Below are positions 43,696 to 63,093 of a stretch of 64,000 bases of DNA, in pieces. The DNA lies in the IMG/VR virus record IMGVR_UViG_3300042889_002115, positions 34,930 through 98,929 of that record. The stretch is one strand, 5' to 3'. Origin of the DNA: a virus. The first letter of the stretch is position 1. Each line of letters begins with the position of its first letter. The notes under the pieces are model-generated. The model saw only the letters and a list, made by a program, of their open reading frames with translations, did not search any database and had not been told where the DNA came from. Position numbers and translations under genes: made by a program.

Positions 43696-44215
43696 AGGTC
43701 TTGAATACAAAGACATGGAGGGCCTGATCAAGCCCACAATCTTTGTGGACGAATTTGCGGCCAAGATGGGCGACGATGATGATATCATTGTGATTTCATT
43801 CTTTGTGCGTGACCTACAAGCAGCCAAGGACCTGATGGCCTGGTTTGAAAAAGGCTATGACTTTGTGCTGGATGCAGATCGCAGCCCCGGCGAAATCAAA
43901 CCAGGACGATACCTGGTTTATGTGGAACTGCGTCGCAGAAGCACTGCACCAGTCAATGTCAATACACTGCTGGAAGACCTTGCCAGCCTAACAGAATTTG
44001 ACACTGCAGACTGGCGCATGAGCTACAAAGGCAATGAGTCTGACTGGAGCGAAGAAGCATTTGCTGAACAAGTTCCACTCACACCCGACGCATATCGCAA
44101 GCGTTATGAAGGCGACCTAAACGAAATGCGTGTGGCAGCAGGTATTGCTCCACGCCGCATACATGAACCTCGTGAAGATGTACAAGCACTACAAAGCATG
44201 GCAGGACTACGATAA
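43640..44215 (+). CDS. Conserved large-phage hypothetical protein
   Basis: DEF..KMG.DDD..V.SF...A.DL..W.EKGY.FVLDAD.S.GE. Confidence 0.7.
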   Translation: MQNNHYNNPFNPAKPLLLEGLEYKDMEGLIKPTIFVDEFAAKMGDDDDIIVISFFVRDLQAAKDLMAWFEKGYDFVLDADRSPGEIKPGRYLVYVELRRRSTAPVNVNTLLEDLASLTEFDTADWRMSYKGNESDWSEEAFAEQVPLTPDAYRKRYEGDLNEMRVAAGIAPRRIHEPREDVQALQSMAGLR

Positions 44216-46686
44216 TGAGAATCACCGAACTAAACAAACGCACACGAATTGACGAATCCTTGCTGTTGCAAGATCCTGTTTATCGCAGTTTCAAACAAGT
44301 GGGTCGCTACCTTGCTGAACGCCGCATGAGCGAAAAAGAAATTCTACAGGTGTTTGCTGACGCAGAAACAGGCATGACCAACACAGCCACTGGCACCAAT
44401 CGTACCATGCTGGGACGCGGCAAAGACAAGGCCACAGATCTTGCAGCCAGCATTAGAGATTCGGTCAACAAGGTGTTGAGCGGTGTACAGAATTCTGTGC
44501 CTGTGTCAGCAGTTGACACTGCTTACGATCAGGCCACTGATGCCCTGGCTGGCCTGGCCGGCGGACAAAAAGGTGCAGTAATGCAGGCGATCAAGAAATA
44601 TCGCATGCTGGTAAAGAAATATCCCAAGTCTGCTGGATTCGCCAAAGCAGCACTGGTGGCCGTCACAGGCCTGGCCACAGGCGGTGCAAGTCTTCCAGTC
44701 ATTGCTGGCCTAACCTATGCGTTGGACGCAGCAATCAAAGGCGAAAAACTTTCCAGCGTGTTTGGCAAAGGTGCAGGTGCAGCAGCACTGGCCTGGGCAG
44801 GTCAATCTATTGCTGGTATGTTTGGGGCAGACCCAGCAGCTGGTGCAGCAGCCGCTGGTACTGATCCAGCTGCCGCGGCGTCTACATTTGTACCTGGTCC
44901 TGACTTGCCTACATACACTGTGCAAGCCGGCGACACACTGAGTCAGATTGCTCAAGCAAACGGTGTATCGGTACAAGAACTAGTTGGGCTAAATCCACAA
45001 TTGGCAGCAGACGCTGGCGCTGTTGGTGGCCAGAATCTCAACCCTGACGTGATATTTCCCGGACAAGAAATTACATTGCCGCCTGCATCAGGAGCCGACG
45101 TTTATGCTGGTGGTGTAGGCACCAGTGCTGACACCATGGCAGACATTGCCAAAGGCAATGTGCCTGACAGTTCTATTTCGCAGACCGCAAGCCTGGAGCG
45201 CCTGGGAGGGGTTGACGCTGCTGATGTGAGTCAAGCTGCTGCTGATCCATCAAAATATTCTGCTCCTATTGATTACAGTCAATCTGGACCAACCGGTACT
45301 GACTCACTGGGACAAAAATTAGAATACGGCATTCCTGTCAACGACAAGGGTAGTTTTATTCCACCAAACGCTGGTTTGCCCGCTGACGAATTGGCCAGAC
45401 AAACAGCCGCATATGATGCCTGGAAAGCAGACTTTACCAAACGTTTTCCAAGTGCTGAACTACAGCCAGACGGATCTATGAAAGCGACCAAACCAGGCCT
45501 AGCGCCCATGTATCCATCAAACTACACACCCGGTGGTGCCAGCGGTTCAATAAGACCAAAAGGATTTACAGAATCTGTCAAGTTGATAAGATTACCGGTC
45601 AGTCAGTTGATTGACAAAAAAACAACCATCTTGAATTGGAAATTGAACGAAAGCACAGGACGCAAGAGCAAAACTGTGAACTTAACCACTGCTGGCGCCT
45701 ACACAGTGTTTGAAAACGTTGACCGATACCGCAAAGCCATCATGGAACTCAAGGGTGTGCCTGGAAGCACACGCCCGGCATTGTATCGTCCCGACATGGC
45801 GGGTGCTCCAGTTGCACCTGCAGCCAAAAAACCCGGCCTATTGAGCCGTGGGCTCAGCAAAGTAGGTGGTGCACTGAGCACATTTGGTCGTCAATTTACC
45901 ACCAACGTGACCAAAGAAAAACTCAAGATGAACTGGCATCAAAAGGGCAAACCCAGTGATTCAGATCAATTGGCTGCTTGGTTGGTCACACAAGGCGTGC
46001 CACAAGAAGTGGTAACTTCAGTTTACAGTAAAATGGGTCTACCAGTTGCTGCGGCTGCTACGGTAGCAGCACAACCAACAGCAGCACCAACAGCTCCTAC
46101 CGCACCAACAACACCAACAACACCAACAGTAGCTACACCAACAGTAGCTACACCAACAACACCAACAACACCAACAGTAGCTACACCAACCGCCGCTACA
46201 ACCAAGCCAACAGCAACCACAACAGCCGGTAAATTCCCAGGTGAAGATCCGCAAGGTGCTGGCTATATTGGTCGTAGAGAAGTTGCTCGTCGTCAGGCTG
46301 CACGTGATGCAGCGGCTGCCAAGAAACCAGTCACACCCAATTTTGGTCAACAGAATGCTGGTTACAAGAGTGTGAACTATGCACCCGCTATCAAAACTGG
46401 GGGTAGTTTGCCTAAATCAACTGCTGCACCAGCCGCAGCACCAACAAAGACACCAACTCAAGCAGAAAAGGATGCTTACATCAAATCAATTGGCGCACCT
46501 GCCATGGCCGAAACCAGCAATGAAAAAATTGGTGGACGATACGAACCTGATGAGTTTGACGCCATGATGAGTAGACTCAAGAAACTGGCCGGGGCAGGAC
46601 CGTTAAAAACTGTGTATGATCCTGCCCGACGTGTGTACAAGAATGTACCCACTGCTGCACAACCACTGACACAACCTAAAAAATGA
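44215..46686 (+). CDS. LysM-domain putative virion/ejection protein with P/T-rich linker
   Basis: [28 protein letters not shown]...[10 protein letters not shown]; leader MRITEL...IDE; hydrophobic A/G segment. Confidence 0.75.
46070..46225 (+). repeat. Low-complexity PT/PTVAT coding repeats
   Basis: ACACCAACA and ACACCAACAGTAGCT units. Confidence 0.85.
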
Positions 46687-46790
46687 AAACATACAACTTC
46701 ACAGTCAACGGCAAGACTTATACTATTGAAGCTGAAAACTTTCAGGTAGCTCGTGCTATTCTGGCTCAGCGTATTTCAGCTGGTGCCTAA
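46683..46790 (+). CDS. 35-aa protein (paralog of 48300..48407; not in ORF track)
   Basis: [35 protein letters not shown]; ATGA overlap. Confidence 0.65.
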   Translation: MKTYNFTVNGKTYTIEAENFQVARAILAQRISAGA

Positions 46791-46791
46791 C

Positions 46792-47151
46792 ATGAGATAC
46801 AGAGAAATTCTCGAAGCTTGTTGGACTGGTTACCGCCAGGCTGGCATGAAGAAAAAAGGCGATCGCATGGTGCCCAATTGTGTTCCTGTGAACGAAGCCG
46901 AACTGGAAGAAGATCTACGCAAGTGGTTCAAACAAAAATGGGTGCGGTTTGGACCTGATGGCAAGATCCGTGGTGACTGTGCCCGTGGTTCAGAATCTGA
47001 AGGCAAGCCCAAGTGTTTGCCACAGGCCAAGGCACATGCACTGGGCAAAAAAGGTCGTGCAAGTGCAGCAGCCAGAAAACGCCGCAAAGATCCTGATGCC
47101 AATCGTTCAGGCCCAGCAATAAATGTTAGTACCAAAGGAAAAAGCAAATGA
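46792..47151 (+). CDS. Basic Cys-containing modular putative head protein
   Basis: MRYREILE|ACWTGY...VPNCVPVNE...LEE|DLRKWF..KWV...C......KPKCLP. Confidence 0.75.
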   Translation: MRYREILEACWTGYRQAGMKKKGDRMVPNCVPVNEAELEEDLRKWFKQKWVRFGPDGKIRGDCARGSESEGKPKCLPQAKAHALGKKGRASAAARKRRKDPDANRSGPAINVSTKGKSK

Positions 47152-48269
47152 TAATATCTGATCTACTGACTGAATCTGCTGGTCGTTGTCCTGAGTGCGG
47201 AGGCCCTGCTTTCTCAGATTTAATACTGGCCGAAAAGAAAGATGCCTGCTATCACAAGGTCAAGGCTAGTGCAAAAGTATGGCCCAGTGCTTATGCATCA
47301 GGTCGCCTGGTACAGTGTCGCAAAAAAGGTGCTGCCAACTATGGCAACAAGTCAGAAGGTGTGGCGGAGGACGAAGAGGTCTACCTCGGAGGAATGTCCA
47401 GGGCAGAAAGAGAAAGCCGCTTCAGACGTAGAAAACAAGATCTATTACAAGATTATGCTTTGTTGGGTAAGCTAACAACAGACATGATTCGTGCAATTAA
47501 TAACGAAGTGTTTTTGACAAAAGAACAAATAATTGATTTTTACAAGCAACAAATCGAAGATCCTGATTTAACAGCATTAGAATATGCTCATGACAATAAT
47601 ATTCCAAGTAGCGGATTGTTAAAAGGTGTTTTACGCTACCTGGTCCAGCGCGGTTTTAGTATGCTTGACATTCGTAAGTTAATGGGAAAAGCAGCTGAAC
47701 AAAAAAAGAAAGATACGCTGGCATTGCCGCCACCTGGACCTGGTGAAGGTGTAGCGGAGGTCACAGGCGATGAAAAATTTAACAAAGCAATGAGACGAAC
47801 CACTGGCGACATCACTTCAGACGATGCTGCCGAAATGTGGCCAACACAAGAATTTGAACCAATTAATCTTGATTCATCATACTTGCCAATGATGGAGAAA
47901 TACAAGGCAAAATTATTTCCGTTAGCTTATGAATACTGGACTGACGGTGACAATGCAGATGAATTAAGAGCACTAGGTTGGGAGCCTGATTACGGCGACG
48001 ACTATGTTATGGTGGTGCTGTCTGGCATTGGACATGATGGTCATATCCAATATGACAAATATGATTTTGATGCCGAAGGTGAAAATGTGACGGAAGCAGC
48101 AGACAACACTGCCTTTCGACAAGGCTACGAACGAGGCATACGATACTATCGTCGCGGCCCACAAAATCCCTACCAACCCAGAACTCTAGAGTTTACAGAC
48201 TACAATGATGGCTATCAGATGGGCGAAGCTGACAGTTATGACAAATATGACACCTCAAGCATGGATTAA
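47148..48269 (+). CDS. Modular polyprotein with GVAE junctions (putative head cargo)
   Basis: MIISDLLTE leader; CxxC; junctions ILAE, GVAE x2, NVTE. Confidence 0.7.
   Translation: MIISDLLTESAGRCPECGGPAFSDLILAEKKDACYHKVKASAKVWPSAYASGRLVQCRKKGAANYGNKSEGVAEDEEVYLGGMSRAERESRFRRRKQDLLQDYALLGKLTTDMIRAINNEVFLTKEQIIDFYKQQIEDPDLTALEYAHDNNIPSSGLLKGVLRYLVQRGFSMLDIRKLMGKAAEQKKKDTLALPPPGPGEGVAEVTGDEKFNKAMRRTTGDITSDDAAEMWPTQEFEPINLDSSYLPMMEKYKAKLFPLAYEYWTDGDNADELRALGWEPDYGDDYVMVVLSGIGHDGHIQYDKYDFDAEGENVTEAADNTAFRQGYERGIRYYRRGPQNPYQPRTLEFTDYNDGYQMGEADSYDKYDTSSMD
47355..47760 (+). repeat. 16-bp direct repeat GAAGGTGTRGCGGAGG flanking an AT-rich in-frame module
   Basis: Copies at 47355-47370 and 47745-47760; related CAAGGTGTGGCGGAA at 62368-62382. 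Confidence 0.85.
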
Positions 48270-48299
48270 AACTCCAGGTAACCAAAAACGAATTAAGAA

Positions 48300-48407
48300 A
48301 TGAAAACTTATAGGTTTACCAACCGCGGCCAAGAATTCATAATACAAGCTGTGGATTTGACCGCAGCACTGGTCATTTATCGTGAGCGACTGCGTGATGC
48401 GAGCTAA
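48300..48407 (+). CDS. 35-aa protein (paralog of 46683..46790)
   Basis: MKTYRFTNRGQEFIIQAVDLTAALVIYRERLRDAS. Confidence 0.6.
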   Translation: MKTYRFTNRGQEFIIQAVDLTAALVIYRERLRDAS

Positions 48408-48756
48408 AGAATTTGCACACTTGAAAGAAGATGCTGTGGAGGATCTTGAAAAAGATCTTGACAATCCCACGAGCTACAGTGCAATTGATCACATGATGCA
48501 GACCATTGCTAGAGATCACGGCATCACTGGCAAACAGTTGCACGATGCATTTGTGGCCAAACATGGTGTGATTCCAGACAAGTGGACACGCAAACAACTA
48601 AAAGAACTTAGCTTTTTGGGATCTGAATGTACCAAGGACTGCTCGGGGCATCGAGCTGGTTATGACTGGAGTGCCCGCAAAGGCAATCGCCCAGGCAACA
48701 GTCCCTACAGTCCCAGCTTCAACAAAGGCGCCAATCTCCGAGCCGCTGGCAAGTAA
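48397..48756 (+). CDS. Two-module putative head protein
   Basis: MRAKEFAHLKE leader; IDHMM..IA..H.ITGK.LH..F..KH...PD.W; LKE| then CTKDCSGHRAGY.W. Confidence 0.7.
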   Translation: MRAKEFAHLKEDAVEDLEKDLDNPTSYSAIDHMMQTIARDHGITGKQLHDAFVAKHGVIPDKWTRKQLKELSFLGSECTKDCSGHRAGYDWSARKGNRPGNSPYSPSFNKGANLRAAGK

Positions 48757-49485
48757 TCACAGCCGAGTATAAACAAAGTACAAGCGTTCGTTGGCTTCAC
48801 GCTTGAATGTGTCCAGCTTTAGATTGTACAGTTCAGCAAACTCATTTGCTATTTCAAACGTCCAAGGAAAGATTTCCACATAAGGACCTGTCTTGTGCGG
48901 AATTCCCGGATTGGCTCGCAAAAAGAATTTGCCACCAGGCCGAAGCAAACTCACACAATGTGCAAATCGTACCTGAATATCTTCTCGGCTGTTGAAGTTG
49001 ATGGATCCCAGTGCAATAATCACATCATGGCTTTCAGGTCGGACTCGGTAATCTAATATATCCACTTCGTAATCTGCGCAGTTATTGTAGGGGTCTATAC
49101 CAATTAGGTTCTGGATGCGTCCTTTGAATGGATGATAGCCACAGCCCACATCCAGCACACTCACAGGATCGAGTTTGTTGATTTGATCTGCCAACTCCCA
49201 GCCTGTGTGCTCGTAGTCGCCGGTGCGTGGTTTCCAGATTTCACTGAAGAAACGCAGGATATAGCGTTCACTTAGATCATCTACAATATCTCGCAGTGTG
49301 CCTTGATAGTCACAGGACAAGCTGAGTTCAGCTTCTACAGCGTCTTTGAACTTGGCGTATCTTGCTGGTGTCCACGGCAGTTGATCTACCGGTGTATCAG
49401 CATCAATAACAATTTTCTGATACTTGGGTAAATTAAACGCAGACTGAAGATTTTTTTGGATTAGAGTAAAAATTTTTGTGTTCAT
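48757..49485 (-). CDS. Class I SAM methyltransferase with N-terminal ACP-like domain
   Basis: VLDVGCG, GIDP, LLRPGG; N-terminal I..DT....L......VE.E......TLRDIVD. Confidence 0.8.
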   Translation of the reverse strand: MNTKIFTLIQKNLQSAFNLPKYQKIVIDADTPVDQLPWTPARYAKFKDAVEAELSLSCDYQGTLRDIVDDLSERYILRFFSEIWKPRTGDYEHTGWELADQINKLDPVSVLDVGCGYHPFKGRIQNLIGIDPYNNCADYEVDILDYRVRPESHDVIIALGSINFNSREDIQVRFAHCVSLLRPGGKFFLRANPGIPHKTGPYVEIFPWTFEIANEFAELYNLKLDTFKREANERLYFVYTRL

Positions 49486-49537
49486 GAGAAAAATTTGGTA
49501 AATAAATGTGATTCAAAGTTATTTAAGGAGTTTTACT

Positions 49538-50494
49538 ATGATCAAAAAATTATTACTGGTGTTGTTGGCCGTGCCTGTTATGGCTGCTGCCTGGCAACCC
49601 ACCAAACCTGTAACAGTTATCTACCCCAATGGCCCCGGTGCAGGCAACGAAATTTCATTTCGCATTGTGGCCGACATTGTGGAAAGAAAAACCGGTACAG
49701 TATTCCGAGCAGAGCACCGACCAGGCGCAGATGGTAACATTGCTATCAATCACTTTGCCACTGTACCAGCTGATGGATACACTGTGGCCATGCCTGCTTG
49801 CAACTCCAATTGGGTTACAGCAGAAGTTTGGTACCCACAAACAGTCAAGTACAATATGTTTGATTTTGAACCAGTGGCCAACATTGCCAAGAGTCCACTA
49901 GCATTTTGGGCAAACCCTGCTAGCAAAGTAAACACACCTGAAGATTTAATTCGTGAAATTCGAAGCAAGAGCCGGCCACTTAACTTTGCTATCGGCGGCG
50001 GCGGACACAAACTAGCAGTGGAATACCTAACAGATGCACTAGCTGTGCCGGGCGGTGATCGAGTACAAACTGCCATGTACAAAGGTCCAGCGCAAGCATT
50101 GTTGGATGTCATAGGTGGCCATGTGGAATTTGCAGTTACTCCAGTGGGAGTAGGTTATCCCCATGTCAAGGCTGGCAAACTCAAGCTGATTGGTTTGGCC
50201 AGCGAAGTTCCGCTCAAAGGTCTAGAGTCTGCTGAATTAATGAGCAAGTATGCTCCAGGACTCAACTTGTATGGTTGCTGGAACTTGATTCTGCCCAAGG
50301 GCACACCACAAGATGTACAGCAATGGTATCATGACAATTTTGTGCCGGCTATCCGTAGCGCAGAAGCACAAAAGAAGTTTGATGATAATTTGATGTTTAT
50401 CACTCGGAAAGAACACACCCCGGCTGGTGTGCATGCGGCCATGGTTAGACTCAAGTCAGACTGGACTCCGATTGCTAGAAAGGTTGCGCCTTGA
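49538..50494 (+). CDS. Bug/TctC tripartite tricarboxylate transporter substrate-binding protein
   Basis: Signal peptide; W.PTKPV, RPGADG.I, ADGYT, YKG.AQAL.DV.GG.V, PKGTP; TAAATA at 49499. Confidence 0.92.
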   Translation: MIKKLLLVLLAVPVMAAAWQPTKPVTVIYPNGPGAGNEISFRIVADIVERKTGTVFRAEHRPGADGNIAINHFATVPADGYTVAMPACNSNWVTAEVWYPQTVKYNMFDFEPVANIAKSPLAFWANPASKVNTPEDLIREIRSKSRPLNFAIGGGGHKLAVEYLTDALAVPGGDRVQTAMYKGPAQALLDVIGGHVEFAVTPVGVGYPHVKAGKLKLIGLASEVPLKGLESAELMSKYAPGLNLYGCWNLILPKGTPQDVQQWYHDNFVPAIRSAEAQKKFDDNLMFITRKEHTPAGVHAAMVRLKSDWTPIARKVAP

Positions 50495-56067: not shown

Positions 56068-56835
56068 ATGGATCACTACAAAACACTTGATGTTGCTCGT
56101 ACTGCCACTCCGGACGAAATAAAAAAAGCCTATCGCAAGCTGGCTTCTCAACATCATCCTGACAAAGGCGGCAACACTGTCAAGTTTCAAGAACTGCAAA
56201 CTGCATACGATACCCTGAGCGATCCTGCCCAGCGAGCTGAATACGACAACCCTAGACCGCAGTTTTCAGGATTCCCCGGCGGTGGATTCAACATGCACGA
56301 CATCTTTGGACAGATGTTTGGTCAGCAGTCCGGACAAACATCTCGCAGAAATCATGTGCGTATGACTGTGTGGATCACCTTGCTGGATGTGGCGCAAGGC
56401 GGCAGTCGCACTGTGAATGTAGGCACATCAACAGGGTCCAGCACCGTGCAAATTGAAATCCCAAAAGGCATCAACGATGGAGACAATGTTCAATACAGTG
56501 GCGTGGGCCCAGGTGGTGTAGACCTGATTGTGCAATTTCGAGTCCGCCCAGATGCCAGATGGCGCCGAGAAGACCTCAATCTCTACTGCGAGCATCGTGT
56601 GCCAATCTGGGACCTGATTCTAGGAGTCGAGACCGAAGTGATCAATATACTAGGACACCAATTGGTTGTGGGTGTGCCGCAAGGCACTCAACCGGGCACC
56701 ACCATGCGACTGAAAGGACATGGCCTGCAGGATCGTCACGGCCAAACAGGAGATCTAATGTTACGTGTTCAAGGCGAAATACCCAAAACAATTGCCCCAG
56801 AAATTGTGGCGGCCATACAACAATACCAAAAATAA
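56068..56835 (+). CDS. dnaJ: DnaJ/CbpA-type co-chaperone (no zinc finger)
   Basis: J-domain with HPD; G/F region; DnaJ C-terminal domain. Confidence 0.92.
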   Translation: MDHYKTLDVARTATPDEIKKAYRKLASQHHPDKGGNTVKFQELQTAYDTLSDPAQRAEYDNPRPQFSGFPGGGFNMHDIFGQMFGQQSGQTSRRNHVRMTVWITLLDVAQGGSRTVNVGTSTGSSTVQIEIPKGINDGDNVQYSGVGPGGVDLIVQFRVRPDARWRREDLNLYCEHRVPIWDLILGVETEVINILGHQLVVGVPQGTQPGTTMRLKGHGLQDRHGQTGDLMLRVQGEIPKTIAPEIVAAIQQYQK

Positions 56836-56837
56836 AC

Positions 56838-56866
56838 TTGCATTGCAGTTGGCATTGCGTTATAAT
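56838..56866 (+). promoter_or_regulatory. sigma70-type promoter
   Basis: TTGCAT-17-TATAAT. Confidence 0.7.
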
Positions 56867-56890
56867 AAACAAAACAACTCAAGGATTCCA

Positions 56891-59149
56891 ATGACCCCTA
56901 CTCCCGAAATTGAACACATTGTTGATCAGGCTGTGAAAATTGCACAGGAGCGGCAGCACGAATATGTGACCTCTGAACACCTGCTGTTGAGCATGATTCG
57001 ATATGCACCTTTTAGAAAAACTGTGGCCAATTTTGGTGTGGACACTGACCACATGGACCAGGAAATTGATGTATATCTAAAAAGCCTTGTGAGCCTGGTC
57101 AACCCCGACGTTGATGTGCCTAAAAAGACACAGGCCCTGGAACGCATTTTTAACCGTGCCAACGTACAGGTCATGTTTACCGGTCGTCGCAACCTTACCG
57201 TGATTGATCTGTATCTTTCAATCATGAGCGAAGGCAATAGTCACGCACAATATTTCATGTTGAAATTTGGCATGAAGAAATCAGAGTTTGTGGAGTTCTG
57301 GCAAAAGAATTATCGACCCACTGATGTCAAACTCAGTAGCAGCCAGGCCGACAGCATTCTAAACGAATACTGCACTAGTCTTACTGCTTGTGCTGAAAAA
57401 GATCAGTTAGAACCCATGATTGGTCGAAGCAAAGAACTGGAAGAAATGATCACCGTGCTGGCTCGACGCTTCAAGGCCAATGTGCTCATGGTTGGCGATC
57501 CTGGTGTGGGCAAAACACACATTGTGGATGGCCTGGCACAGGAAATCATTGCCGGACGTGTGCCCGAGTTCCTAAAAGGGCATGAAGTCTGGAGTCTTGA
57601 AATTGGCAGCCTGCTGGCAGGTTCTAAATATCGCGGCGAGTTTGAAGAAAAATTTAAAGCAGTTATTTCTGCTCTGGAATCCAAGAAAAACTGTATCCTG
57701 TTTGTGGACGAAGCGCACACCATGAAAGGTGCGGGTGCAGGGTCAACTGCAGGGCTGGACTTTGCCAACATGCTGAAGCCGGCTATTACCAAAGGCAACC
57801 TCAAGGTTGTGGCGTCAACCACCTGGGAAGAGTACTACGAAAGCTTTGAAAAAGATCGTGCACTCATGCGTAGATTCTATCGACTCAGCATTGACGAGCC
57901 CGATGCAGAAACCACGGAAAAGATCCTGATTGGCCTCAGTCCGCGCCTGGAACAGTTTCACAATGTGTTGATTGACACAGAAGCCATGATCACTGCAGTG
58001 GAACTGGCTGCTCGTTACATTCATGACCGCAAGAATCCTGACAAAAGTATTGACATCATTGATGCTGCTTGTGCTCGAGAGCGTGTGAAAGATCAAGGCA
58101 CAGTCACCGTCACTCGAGACATGATTGAACAGCAGGTGGCTCGCATGACTGGCGTGCCCACGGACAAACTGCAAAACGAGCGATCAGCCAAGATTGTGGA
58201 ACTGGAATCAAACATCAAGCAAAAACTGTATGGGCAAGACTCAGCTGTGGACGCTGTGCTGGATCGAGTGTACATCAGCTTTGCTGGCATCAGCAACGAA
58301 AAACGACCCATGGCCAGTTTCTTGTTCTTGGGTCCAACCGGTACAGGCAAAACTGAACTGGCACGATTGTTGAGCCAAAATCTTGACATGCATCTACTCA
58401 AGTATGACATGAGCGAGTTTCAAGAGCGGCACAGTGTGAGCGGCTTGATCGGTGCTCCCCCAGGCTATGTGGGTTTTGAAGATGGCAACGTGGGCGGCGG
58501 CAAACTGATTTCTGACATCAGTAAGAATCCGTTCAGCATCATCTTGTTTGACGAAATTGAAAAAGCACATCCTGACGTCAGTAACATCTTGCTACAGATG
58601 CTGGACGAAGGTGTGATTACCAGCAGTGGTGGCAAACGAGTCAACGTCAAGAACTGTATCATTATCTTGACATCCAACCTGGGTGCTGCTGCCAGTGAAG
58701 TCAACAACATTGGCTTTGGTTCGCAGGAAAAAAGCGGAGAAGATGAGCGAGCACTCAAGGAGTTTTTCAAACCTGAAATGCGTAACCGTATTGATCAGAT
58801 TGTGAAGTTCTCCAAGCTGGACACCCTGGCTATCAAGAAAGTGGTTGTGAAGTTTGCCGAAGAACTCAAGACCAGCTTGCTGGCCAAGAACATTCGACTC
58901 AACATGACCGAAGCTGTGATTGACATGCTGGCTGACAAAGGATATGACTCCAAGATGGGTGCACGACCCCTGAGTCGCAAGATTGACCAGTTGATTCGAG
59001 TGCCACTCAGCAAGCGAATCTTGTTTGATCGGCTGGCAGACTGCGACATCACTGCGGACATGAATGGTGATGATGTGGTGTTTGATGCAGTGGCTCACGA
59101 AATTCCTGTGGTAGGCGATGACGGAATTATTCGATTTCCCACTCCATGA
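56891..59149 (+). CDS. clpA: Clp ATPase, ClpA-type
   Basis: Clp N-domain; GDPGVGKT and GPTGTGKT; IGF loop (NNIGFG); no M-domain; GARPL. Confidence 0.93.
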   Translation: MTPTPEIEHIVDQAVKIAQERQHEYVTSEHLLLSMIRYAPFRKTVANFGVDTDHMDQEIDVYLKSLVSLVNPDVDVPKKTQALERIFNRANVQVMFTGRRNLTVIDLYLSIMSEGNSHAQYFMLKFGMKKSEFVEFWQKNYRPTDVKLSSSQADSILNEYCTSLTACAEKDQLEPMIGRSKELEEMITVLARRFKANVLMVGDPGVGKTHIVDGLAQEIIAGRVPEFLKGHEVWSLEIGSLLAGSKYRGEFEEKFKAVISALESKKNCILFVDEAHTMKGAGAGSTAGLDFANMLKPAITKGNLKVVASTTWEEYYESFEKDRALMRRFYRLSIDEPDAETTEKILIGLSPRLEQFHNVLIDTEAMITAVELAARYIHDRKNPDKSIDIIDAACARERVKDQGTVTVTRDMIEQQVARMTGVPTDKLQNERSAKIVELESNIKQKLYGQDSAVDAVLDRVYISFAGISNEKRPMASFLFLGPTGTGKTELARLLSQNLDMHLLKYDMSEFQERHSVSGLIGAPPGYVGFEDGNVGGGKLISDISKNPFSIILFDEIEKAHPDVSNILLQMLDEGVITSSGGKRVNVKNCIIILTSNLGAAASEVNNIGFGSQEKSGEDERALKEFFKPEMRNRIDQIVKFSKLDTLAIKKVVVKFAEELKTSLLAKNIRLNMTEAVIDMLADKGYDSKMGARPLSRKIDQLIRVPLSKRILFDRLADCDITADMNGDDVVFDAVAHEIPVVGDDGIIRFPTP

Positions 59150-60795: not shown

Positions 60796-63093
60796 ATGAA
60801 ACAATTAGTCATCATGCCTGGCGGATTTCACCCTTTTCACGCAGGCCATCTAGCACTTTATCAATCTGCTGTTCAGGCTTTTCCTGGCGCTGATGTCAAA
60901 GTAGCTGCTACCAACGACACATCAACTCGTCCATTCCCTTTTGCACTCAAAGAAAAACTAGCACAACTGGCAGGAGTCGCCCCGGGCAACTTTTATCAAG
61001 TCAAAAGTCCATTTCGTGCTGAAGAGATTACCAAGAGTTACAATCCTGCTACCACACAGTTGATCTTTGTTCGCAGTGAAAAAGATGCCAACAAACTACC
61101 GCAAGCAGGAGGGGTCAAACGTGATGGCGCACCTGCATATCTGCAGCCCATCAGTGATCAACTGGCACCAATGACTCAGCATGCCTACATGGTGTACTTG
61201 CCCACAGTGGAGTTTGGTCCAGGCATGACCAGTGCCACAGAAATACGCTCTGCCTGGCCCACACTCACAGATCGCCGCAAAACAGCCTTGGTCATGAGCT
61301 TGTACCCCAAAACACAACGCAACCCCAAACTGGCTGCTGTTGTGGTCAAAATGCTGGATACTGCCATTGGCACACAAGAAGTAGATGAAAGATCGCTGAA
61401 AGAATTTGCTCCCGGGTCAGGCGGTGATGACGACATCGGCGATGATCCCTACAAGTATCCCAAGCCAGAGCGGTACCGTCGCAGTGCGGATTACTTTGGC
61501 CAATTTGAAGCAGATCATTTTGATCGTGAAGCCTTTGATGATGCCACTGGTGAGTTCAAAGGCTACTGGGGGCGTACACCAATTGCTTATTTCAAGTTTG
61601 ACAACCCAGCACGAACTGGCAGCGATGATCCGGGCCGAGGCTGGTACTACGAACCACAGTCAAACAACAGCGGTGACGACACCAGTGCCGAACCTGCTGA
61701 TGATAACGCTGAGCAACGCAAGCAACAAGAGTTGGGCATGATCCGTCAGTTTTTGAAATCTGGCAATCGACCAAATCCAGACAGTCAAATTGGTCGATTG
61801 ATGAAAAAACATGGCATAGAGGAAGATCTAAGCCGCAGAGGATTCTTACGAGGCCTAGGCGCTGCGGCTGCTGGTGCGGTCGGTGTTGGCGCTGCTGGTC
61901 CGGCTCAAGCACGATCAACTGATGCGTCACGAAAAGAAGATGCTGAGGCCTTGGCATTACTGGCCAAAGGTATGACTCCTGAACAAGTTGCTAAAAAATT
62001 AGGAGTTGCTGGACCAAATCACGGGCAGACCCATCATATGGGTGGTCGGTGGGCTTCAATCAATCGGGCAGCAGCACAGCTCCGACGACAACGAGGCCTA
62101 AACGAATTTGCAATGGGCGGCGGTGACGATGACGGCAACGATGGCTTCAGTGATGACACACTTAAACAGCTGGCAGCACAGTGGTACAATGGCGACGAAG
62201 ATCCCAGAGTAGAACAAACACTGGCAGCAGCAGGTTGGGAAATTGGTCAAGATGAAGGCTATGATGATACACCGGGTGTGTTTGTGGTGCAGGCCGGAGA
62301 CATCAACGGCAACAGCTATATCAGTTGGCCTGCCCACGAACTAGAAGGCCTGGCCGAAGCAAGCAAGCAAGGTGTGGCGGAAAACTTTGCTGATGGTAAA
62401 AACCCACAAGACAAAGGTGATGCCAAGCGTCACGGTATCAACACCAAGGCCAGTGTAAGCAGTCTACGCAAAACTGCCAAGCAAGGTGGACGCAAAGGAC
62501 AACTGGCACACTGGTTGGCCAACATGAAAGCTGGCCGAGCCAAGAACGAGGACATAACAGAAGATAATGACTGCCCTCCGGCTACACAGGATATCTCACT
62601 CAATCTCAAGAACAGACAAAAAGCCATCAACGAATACGGTTACGGTCCGCTCAACCCAGACTTGCCCAACACCAAGTTCTGGATGAAAAAGGTTGATGAG
62701 TGGAATCTAGACAGCATGGAAGAAGCACAAAGCAGCTTGTGCGGTAATTGTGCAGCATTTGACATACGACAAGAAACTCTAGACTGTATTGCACAAGGTA
62801 TTGATAGTGATAGTCCCGAAGACGCCGAAGGTGTGATTGATGCTGGCGACTTGGGCTATTGCAAGTTCCTAAAGTTCAAGTGTGCAAGCCGCAGAACATG
62901 TGATGCTTGGGTAACCGGTGGACCACTAGAGGACAAACCAGTTGACGAAAATCAAGGTTGGGCAGCAACATACCAAGAAGCAGACTCTGACTATATTGAA
63001 GAAAAGTGGAGCGCAAAATACAAGAGCAGTATCAATTGTGCCAATCCCAAAGGATTTAGTCAAAAAGCTCACTGCGCTGGTCGTAAAAAATAG
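60796..63093 (+). CDS. HxGH nucleotidyltransferase-like domain followed by a string of E-delimited modules (polyprotein)
   Basis: PGGFHPFHAGH...SATEIR; junctions LKE, IEE, LNE, LAE, VAE, ITE, VDE, IEE; TAAATA 6 nt upstream. Confidence 0.8.
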   Translation: MKQLVIMPGGFHPFHAGHLALYQSAVQAFPGADVKVAATNDTSTRPFPFALKEKLAQLAGVAPGNFYQVKSPFRAEEITKSYNPATTQLIFVRSEKDANKLPQAGGVKRDGAPAYLQPISDQLAPMTQHAYMVYLPTVEFGPGMTSATEIRSAWPTLTDRRKTALVMSLYPKTQRNPKLAAVVVKMLDTAIGTQEVDERSLKEFAPGSGGDDDIGDDPYKYPKPERYRRSADYFGQFEADHFDREAFDDATGEFKGYWGRTPIAYFKFDNPARTGSDDPGRGWYYEPQSNNSGDDTSAEPADDNAEQRKQQELGMIRQFLKSGNRPNPDSQIGRLMKKHGIEEDLSRRGFLRGLGAAAAGAVGVGAAGPAQARSTDASRKEDAEALALLAKGMTPEQVAKKLGVAGPNHGQTHHMGGRWASINRAAAQLRRQRGLNEFAMGGGDDDGNDGFSDDTLKQLAAQWYNGDEDPRVEQTLAAAGWEIGQDEGYDDTPGVFVVQAGDINGNSYISWPAHELEGLAEASKQGVAENFADGKNPQDKGDAKRHGINTKASVSSLRKTAKQGGRKGQLAHWLANMKAGRAKNEDITEDNDCPPATQDISLNLKNRQKAINEYGYGPLNPDLPNTKFWMKKVDEWNLDSMEEAQSSLCGNCAAFDIRQETLDCIAQGIDSDSPEDAEGVIDAGDLGYCKFLKFKCASRRTCDAWVTGGPLEDKPVDENQGWAATYQEADSDYIEEKWSAKYKSSINCANPKGFSQKAHCAGRKK

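Follow-up and report, generated by a model that had tools for sequence, protein, structure and literature searches.

Candidate mosaic polyprotein genes with a recurrent in-frame junction in a probable giant lake phage

Two genes in the viral DNA examined here are best explained as mosaic polyproteins, in which unrelated modules of 30-130 residues are joined in frame by a portable junction encoding G-V-A-E. As comparison with related phages shows, whole modules are inserted, deleted and replaced at this junction, and the junction DNA itself is conserved beyond what the peptide requires, its silent sites lying far from the codon-usage expectation. The joint reading that we hold to be probable, if only just, is that these mosaic polyproteins exchange modules through microhomology at the junction, that V-A-E is a cleavage site for a head protease, and that the cut products are head cargo. 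The window, meaning the whole 64-kb stretch that was analyzed, is the final part of a 98,929-bp IMG/VR record with a CheckV completeness of ~29%. Its source is best explained as a fragment of an uncultured giant lake phage that is T4-related in head maturation.

If true, giant lake phages would package strings of small effectors as one polyprotein and diversify them by whole-module swaps at a universal in-frame joint. Two T4 themes, head-internal proteins and motif-mediated shuffling, would be united in one short sequence. Metagenomes could then be searched for injected phage effectors by a simple rule, taking the sequence between two junctions, and the arrangement would provide a natural design for modular protein delivery via phage heads.

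Layout of the two genes and exchange of their modules

The first gene (47148..48269, plus strand, as are all features described here) encodes 373 aa, and its module limits were placed where homology with relatives breaks. Translation begins with a nine-residue leader, MIISDLLTE (47148..47174), which ends in L-T-E and is followed by module A (47175..47354), recognized by homology and containing a CxxC motif and a DUF5872-like core (KVWPSAYASGRLVQCRKKGAANYGNKSE). Junction 1, GAAGGTGTGGCGGAGG, encodes E-G-V-A-E (47355..47370) and is where homology ends in relatives. It leads into module B (47371..47744), a 374-bp cassette of 125 residues distinguished by its lower GC and by its absence or replacement in relatives. 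Junction 2, GAAGGTGTAGCGGAGG, again encodes E-G-V-A-E (47745..47760), and the homologies of two related loci, L084 and L085, break there. Module C (VTGDEKF...YDFDAEG; 47761..48080), which has varied neighbours in relatives, is separated from module D (AADNTAFRQGYERG...SSMD; 48097..48269) by a decayed junction, GAAAATGTGACGGAAG, which encodes E-N-V-T-E (48081..48096) and is still a module boundary by the breaks in homology. Module D is common to a related protein, P0007, and to three related loci, L086, L087 and L088. Junctions 1 and 2 are identical at 15 of 16 positions and lie 390 bp, or 130 codons, apart from start to start; GAAAATGTGACGGAAG is the third member of the same repeat family, D1, at 75% identity.

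The second gene (60796..63093) encodes 765 aa with a cytidylyltransferase-like domain first, as judged from the ORF and a domain search, and blastn divides it into at least six independently distributed segments. A motif match placed junction 3, CAAGGTGTGGCGGAA, at 62368..62382, where it encodes Q-G-V-A-E. All four junction sequences that a sequence-only reading of this DNA had pointed out, at 47355, 47745, 48081-48096 and 62368, are present and in frame. By their translations, the modules of each gene are in-frame parts of a single ORF, and internal start and stop codons are absent. An internal twin-arginine-like signal, SRRGFLRGLGAAAAGAVGVGAAGPAQA, lies at 61816-61890 (residues ~341-365 of the 765-aa ORF; Pfam TAT_signal E = 0.013, under the cut-off); it would act as a signal solely if cleavage exposed it.

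That same reading had described the segment between junctions 1 and 2 as visibly AT-richer. At 39.6% GC overall and 31-33% in 150-bp windows of its core, module B does lie below module A (47.3%) and the window (46.4%); the drop is real yet moderate, and module C (41.6%) is likewise under average. We also considered module B as an intein or self-splicing insert and rejected this, since it lacks such terminal residues.

Several neighbouring genes have related features. Directly upstream, a small gene (46753-47151) has the leader MRYREILE followed by two modules, CWxGY...VPNCVP and LRKWF...GKPKCLP, both of which also occur in cyanomyovirus multi-module proteins and are joined here without a GVAE motif. 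An 823-aa protein encoded at 44215-46686 has a targeting-sequence-like leader (MRITEL...), LysM/transglycosylase-type matches and extended stretches rich in Pro/Thr/Ala. The C-terminal tail of this protein is also found at the ends of other polyproteins (P0011, P0013, P0029 and the L084 ORF at 1339-2490); it may be a module for targeting or anchoring that these proteins have in common. The segment at 56068-59149 encodes a DnaJ-like protein with an HPD motif and, after it, a 794-aa ClpB/Clp-type AAA+ protein that matches PHROG 4871 'ATP-dependent protease' best (E = 5e-236); the phage therefore has its own chaperone/unfoldase pair.

Alignment of related loci to the window placed the limits of homology at the junctions. 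By blastn and alignment, the match of L086, L087 and L088 to the window runs from 44214 with 92-93% identity and stops exactly at 47368, where the core motif ends; it resumes at 48082, in the decayed junction, at 86% identity. The intervening stretch holds two different modules in these loci, with GVAE, GVAE and SVSE as the joints; in L087 the counterpart of the decayed junction reads K-Q-S-V-S-E. Homology ends at 47368-47375 in five further loci (L089, L090, L091, L095 and L110), and that of L085 covers 47757-48079 only, i.e., module C. L084 shares module B at 97.5% identity over 47398-47752, ending inside junction 2, and the rest of its shared backbone is 74-81% identical to the window. There the module belongs to a different polyprotein, the gene upstream of a gene with a D-like module; module D itself has 74% DNA identity to a separate L084 gene. 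At junction 3, matches on the upstream side run out at 62359-62360, and those on the downstream side, to more than 20 loci, set in at 62366-62380.

Protein homologues gave the same picture. One (P0006) is a full-length copy of the 373-aa protein at 96% identity, and P0007, a 243-aa protein with 97% identity, has the sequence ...NKSEGVAEATGDEKF...; it has modules A, C and D, contains a single GVAE and lacks module B. It is the empty-site allele for which the sequence-only reading had suggested looking; a viral-contig scan with P0007 did not find that allele as DNA, and it is known as protein sequence only. An unrelated 584-aa polyprotein (P0008) contains module B at 95% identity, between ...SQGVAE and NEGVME.... 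Modules present in one phage and missing or replaced in another are delimited by the repeat at nucleotide resolution, contrary to one of the conditions that would have refuted that reading, and segments that related phages have exchanged have the conserved motif at their ends. Repeat-bounded variation of this kind recurs in the alignments and is in part recent, and it supports the exchange of cassettes at the repeat. Since homology must stop wherever unrelated cassettes start, breakpoints at the junction are by themselves no proof of crossover inside the motif.

Two further loci, L004 and L009, present the cleanest case of recent cassette movement: L004:3001-3359 and L009:3001-3359 are 98.9% identical over exactly 359 bp, comprising module C and both flanking motif copies, and their other shared stretches are 73-84% identical and differ in order. 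In L020 (~1783-1840), MPQPSQGVAE is the start of a small stand-alone gene that goes on with the NFADGKNP... module, the one that follows junction 3 in the window; the gene is a single cassette retaining its junction behind a mini-leader.

The protein search returned more than 5,000 matches, nearly all of them mosaic, with G[VIM]AE in 112 of the best 120. Module A is 85-91% identical to portions of multi-module proteins in the cyanomyoviruses P-SSM4, Syn33/S-RIM12 and S-SKS1; its Pfam match to DUF5872 (E = 0.033) is under the cut-off, and its PHROG matches range from 1e-17 to 1e-23. Against L001-L003, its core has ~90% protein identity to marine cyanomyoviruses, the DNA of the host phages being otherwise unrelated, and the cyanophage junctions after module A (SEEVIWDE, SEGMTYQE and SESVEY) do not carry the DNA motif. 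Module C precedes and follows many differing neighbours among relatives. Its copies have 81-87% DNA identity between phages whose large structural protein is ~30% identical, so the cassettes are younger than the genomes that carry them. Module B had no family match, a search of the ESM Atlas with modules B and C gave no usable match, and a megablast of 44000-50000 against phage records found none.

A candidate head-protease site

The gp21-family proteases of T4, phiKZ and SPN3US recognize a three-residue motif and cut behind its Glu (PMC5694885); T4 Alt is cut at ITE-6 and LTE-619, and the SPN3US motif is A-x-E (PMC5694885). The V-A-E of the junction fits the hydrophobic-x-Glu rule of these prohead proteases as a candidate cut site, and cleavage there is plausible. 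The decayed junctions, which read NVTE, SVSE and DVSE, retain V-x-E.

The leader may point to the same pathway. The T4 capsid-targeting sequence, MKTYQEFIAE, ends in I-A-E (PMC8442874), and the T-even internal proteins are diverse injected anti-defence proteins that share only their targeting sequence (PMC3012670). MIISDLLTE seems to resemble the T4 sequence in length and form, a resemblance only. Leaders of the types MIISELFE, MKINQLVTE and MKISQIITE recur among 49 distinct N-termini of homologues and end in [LIVF]-x-E. A short leader of this kind would allow the polyprotein to be taken into the prohead, where it would be cut into separate small head-internal or ejected proteins; by analogy, then, the polyproteins may be head cargo cut into modules.

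Two relatives, G001 and G003, encode a Peptidase_S77 (T4 gp21) homologue scoring over the cut-off, and the large structural protein of G001 is 60% identical to that of the contig. Peptidase_S77 had no match in the contig, itself ~29% complete. An AlphaFold model built from the mosaic alignment (mean pLDDT 45.5) is too weak to show exposed linkers; in this same weak model, residues 68-82 around junction 1 score below 50 and lie between two better-modelled modules.

GVAE could instead be a mere flexible linker between the domains of proteins that stay intact, neither cut nor packaged, which would rival only the protease half of our reading. Multi-domain phage proteins are common, and the same modules occur in cyanomyovirus multi-module proteins that do not carry GVAE. 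Unrelated and freely permuted modules would, however, be odd in a protein that works as one unit; the decayed junctions keep specifically the hydrophobic-x-Glu pattern, the leaders resemble the T4 targeting sequence, the stand-alone gene of L020 starts with MPQPSQGVAE directly before its module, and relatives carry a gp21-type protease. We consider a plain linker possible, though unlikely.

Junction DNA and the mechanism of exchange

The string GGTGTRGCGGA occurs three times in the window and three times in the whole 98,929-bp contig, always on the coding strand and in frame, against 0.03 occurrences expected from shuffles. Codon choice at GVAE departs from the contig background, contrary to the other refuting condition named in the sequence-only reading, and its view that synonymous positions are kept is supported. 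GCG, which it had taken for a minority Ala codon, makes up 6.4% of the 2,215 Ala codons in 79 long ORFs (GGT, 30% of Gly; GAG, 21% of Glu) and is used in all three copies. Elsewhere the contig contains a single GVAE, located in an ordinary ORF and encoded GGC GTG GCT GAG. Under contig codon usage, the probability that three GVAE peptides would all be written GGT-GTR-GCG is ~2e-6, a post hoc figure.

A wider codon survey drew on loci that had been retrieved for their protein similarity and independently of the DNA motif; it comprised 75 distinct GVAE contexts in 49 ORFs. In these, GGT was used in 91%, GTG in 83% and GCG in 84%, versus 37%, 28% and 7% in the background of the same ORFs; the Glu codon, GAA, matched its background (83% vs 81%). 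The preceding codon ended in AA in 96% of contexts, and the following base was G in 77%. The junction consensus among relatives is [C/G]AA GGT GTG GCG GAR G, encoding (Q/E)-G-V-A-E, and the 18-mer junction sequence is CAAGGTGTGGCGGAAGGC. Allowing one mismatch to the 12-mer GGTGTGGCGGAA, we counted 92 distinct in-frame copies, flanked by 68 upstream and 80 downstream sequence classes, and just two additional copies outside a long open frame. The motif lay on the coding strand in every copy surveyed, its GGT always being a Gly codon.

Copy number per genome is low. The 349-kb genome of G001, which is 97% complete, encodes five GVAE peptides in 362 ORFs, all five at such junctions and four of them canonical, so that the motif in this lineage marks a few mosaic genes, with no large array. 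Much more array-like than the window are an ORF of 1,089 aa with 11 junction copies (L237) and one of 1,200 aa with six (L202).

The fixed silent positions clearly signal constraint on the DNA itself, for which selection for evolvability would be a weak explanation and an as yet unrecognized DNA- or RNA-level function a possible one. A comparison of silent sites among homologous copies of module A and its junction was discarded, the sequences being too closely related to inform.

We weighed whether an RNA-level or translational cause, such as a ribosome pause, a rare codon or an RNA-processing signal, fixes the silent sites, with recombination at the boundaries incidental. It would account for a rare GCG kept in 84% of junctions and for the placement of all copies in frame on the coding strand; in addition, the motif holds AGGUG, and its GAG variant holds GGAGG. 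One translational cause, pairing with the 16S 3' end, was assessed by prediction, and here the canonical encoding was average, ranking 696 of 1,024 synonymous encodings of QGVAEG (usage-weighted P = 0.51); a Shine-Dalgarno-like pause was rejected because its pairing is no better than average. The GGAGG variant occurs in only 17% of junctions, one rare codon leaves the fixation of GGT and GTG unexplained, and the unrelated flanks make a conserved RNA structure impossible. No in-frame start codon follows the motif in the window, and internal translation starts behind the GGAGG were rejected, nearby ATGs being out of frame or too close. A cause of this kind strikes us as rather improbable.

The reading that we prefer, exchange through microhomology, would start from the 13-18 nt of the junction as the sole sequence common to otherwise unrelated cassettes. 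Because it is all that they share, it could act as portable microhomology for general recombination or replication machinery, either by strand invasion of the RecA/UvsX type or by annealing or template switching between direct repeats. Any crossover at this point would yield an in-frame product with intact modules, and cassettes that keep the motif would keep spreading, which would explain the fixed silent sites. Two relatives, G001 and G003, have a RecA/UvsX-family gene scoring over the cut-off; the enzymes involved are a matter of conjecture, 13-18 nt being little sequence for strand exchange.

The junction might instead be doubly coded, a cut site for the head protease and at the same time the DNA recognition site of a dedicated enzyme or programmed mechanism, with in-frame cassettes moving between the polyprotein genes of co-infecting giant phages. 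We find this double role quite improbable; if true, it would imply a shared modular library of injected effectors.

The sequence-only reading had gone on to picture an integron-like array inside an ORF and had suggested searching for a recombinase. A system of the integron or shufflon type would have its own site-specific recombinase or nuclease, which would recognize the junction and move cassettes as circles. The motif is indeed strictly conserved, one-stranded and in direct orientation, it bounds cassettes of 100-400 bp, ORFs with six and 11 copies exist, and nearly identical cassettes with ends exactly at the two motif copies have moved from phage to phage. Against this, the search found no tyrosine or serine recombinase in the five records, one of them 97% complete: Phage_integrase (PF00589) was absent from the contig (29% complete) and from four relatives, including the 97%-complete 349-kb genome, with 14 of 14 controls matched, and Resolvase (PF00239) was absent from the same five records with the control genomes matched. 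The motif is without dyad symmetry, 47148-48269 contains no inverted repeats, and each genome has only three to five copies. What is supported of the proposal is cassette exchange bounded by the repeat; the integron mechanism is not supported, and we regard it as very doubtful. Chance similarity or ordinary codon usage, which so short a motif with only three contig copies might suggest, has practically no probability left given the 0.03 copies expected, the codon probability of ~2e-6 and the recurrence of the same 13-mer in dozens of unrelated contexts in other phages.

Comparison with known systems

A literature search for the GVAE/QGVAE peptide motif returned nothing on phages, which is no proof of absence. 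Of the systems that invite comparison, integrons are defined by the integrase IntI, encoded beside the array, an attI site and attC sites, the last being imperfect inverted repeats that can fold as hairpins, and each of their cassettes is a gene of its own, usually without a promoter. Both systems have variable cassettes that lie between copies of a recurring site and are gained, lost and reordered. Unlike in integrons, no integrase was found in the five records searched here and no attC-like hairpin in the 373-aa gene, and the cassettes are in-frame protein modules; the junction system fails the defining integron tests. The silent vls cassettes of Borrelia are joined into one reading frame by 17-bp direct repeats, are variants of one sequence and are transferred into the expression site by gene conversion. 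The phage genes likewise have in-frame cassettes set off by a short direct repeat that is conserved, but these cassettes are unrelated to one another and all lie in the expressed ORF.

The likeness to the internal proteins of T4 and the T-even phages (IPI, IPII, IPIII and Alt) would include a short leader ending in hydrophobic-x-Glu, diverse and fast-changing small putative cargo, a gp21-family protease (here in relatives) and a junction that fits the after-Glu cutting rule. T4 internal proteins are encoded by separate genes, each product being cut once behind its leader (PMC8442874, PMC3012670, PMC5694885). In contrast, the genes described here combine many unrelated modules in one ORF, with repeated candidate sites and fixed silent positions.

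For the exchange itself, the promoter-terminator motifs termed PeSL mediate gene swapping in T4-type phages and give mini-circles (PMC2839356, PMC4122927). In both cases, a short conserved motif with its own function flanks variable genes and is an exchange point between unrelated sequences. PeSLs are intergenic, combine a promoter with a stem-loop, serve whole-gene swaps and owe their conservation to a regulatory function; the junction motif, in contrast, is 13-18 nt long, coding and in frame, with no stem-loop or inverted repeat. Exchanges of the gp38 adhesin in T-even phages fall within or near conserved motifs, according to PMC3157838, which cites Tetart et al. 1996 and 1998. On that account, in-ORF exchange at conserved motifs likewise yields chimeric functional proteins, with the difference that the adhesins swap homologous variants within one fold, whereas here unrelated domains are exchanged and a single identical junction is reused. 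The junction system resembles a blend of T4 internal proteins and PeSL/adhesin-type shuffling, and is a member of neither family.
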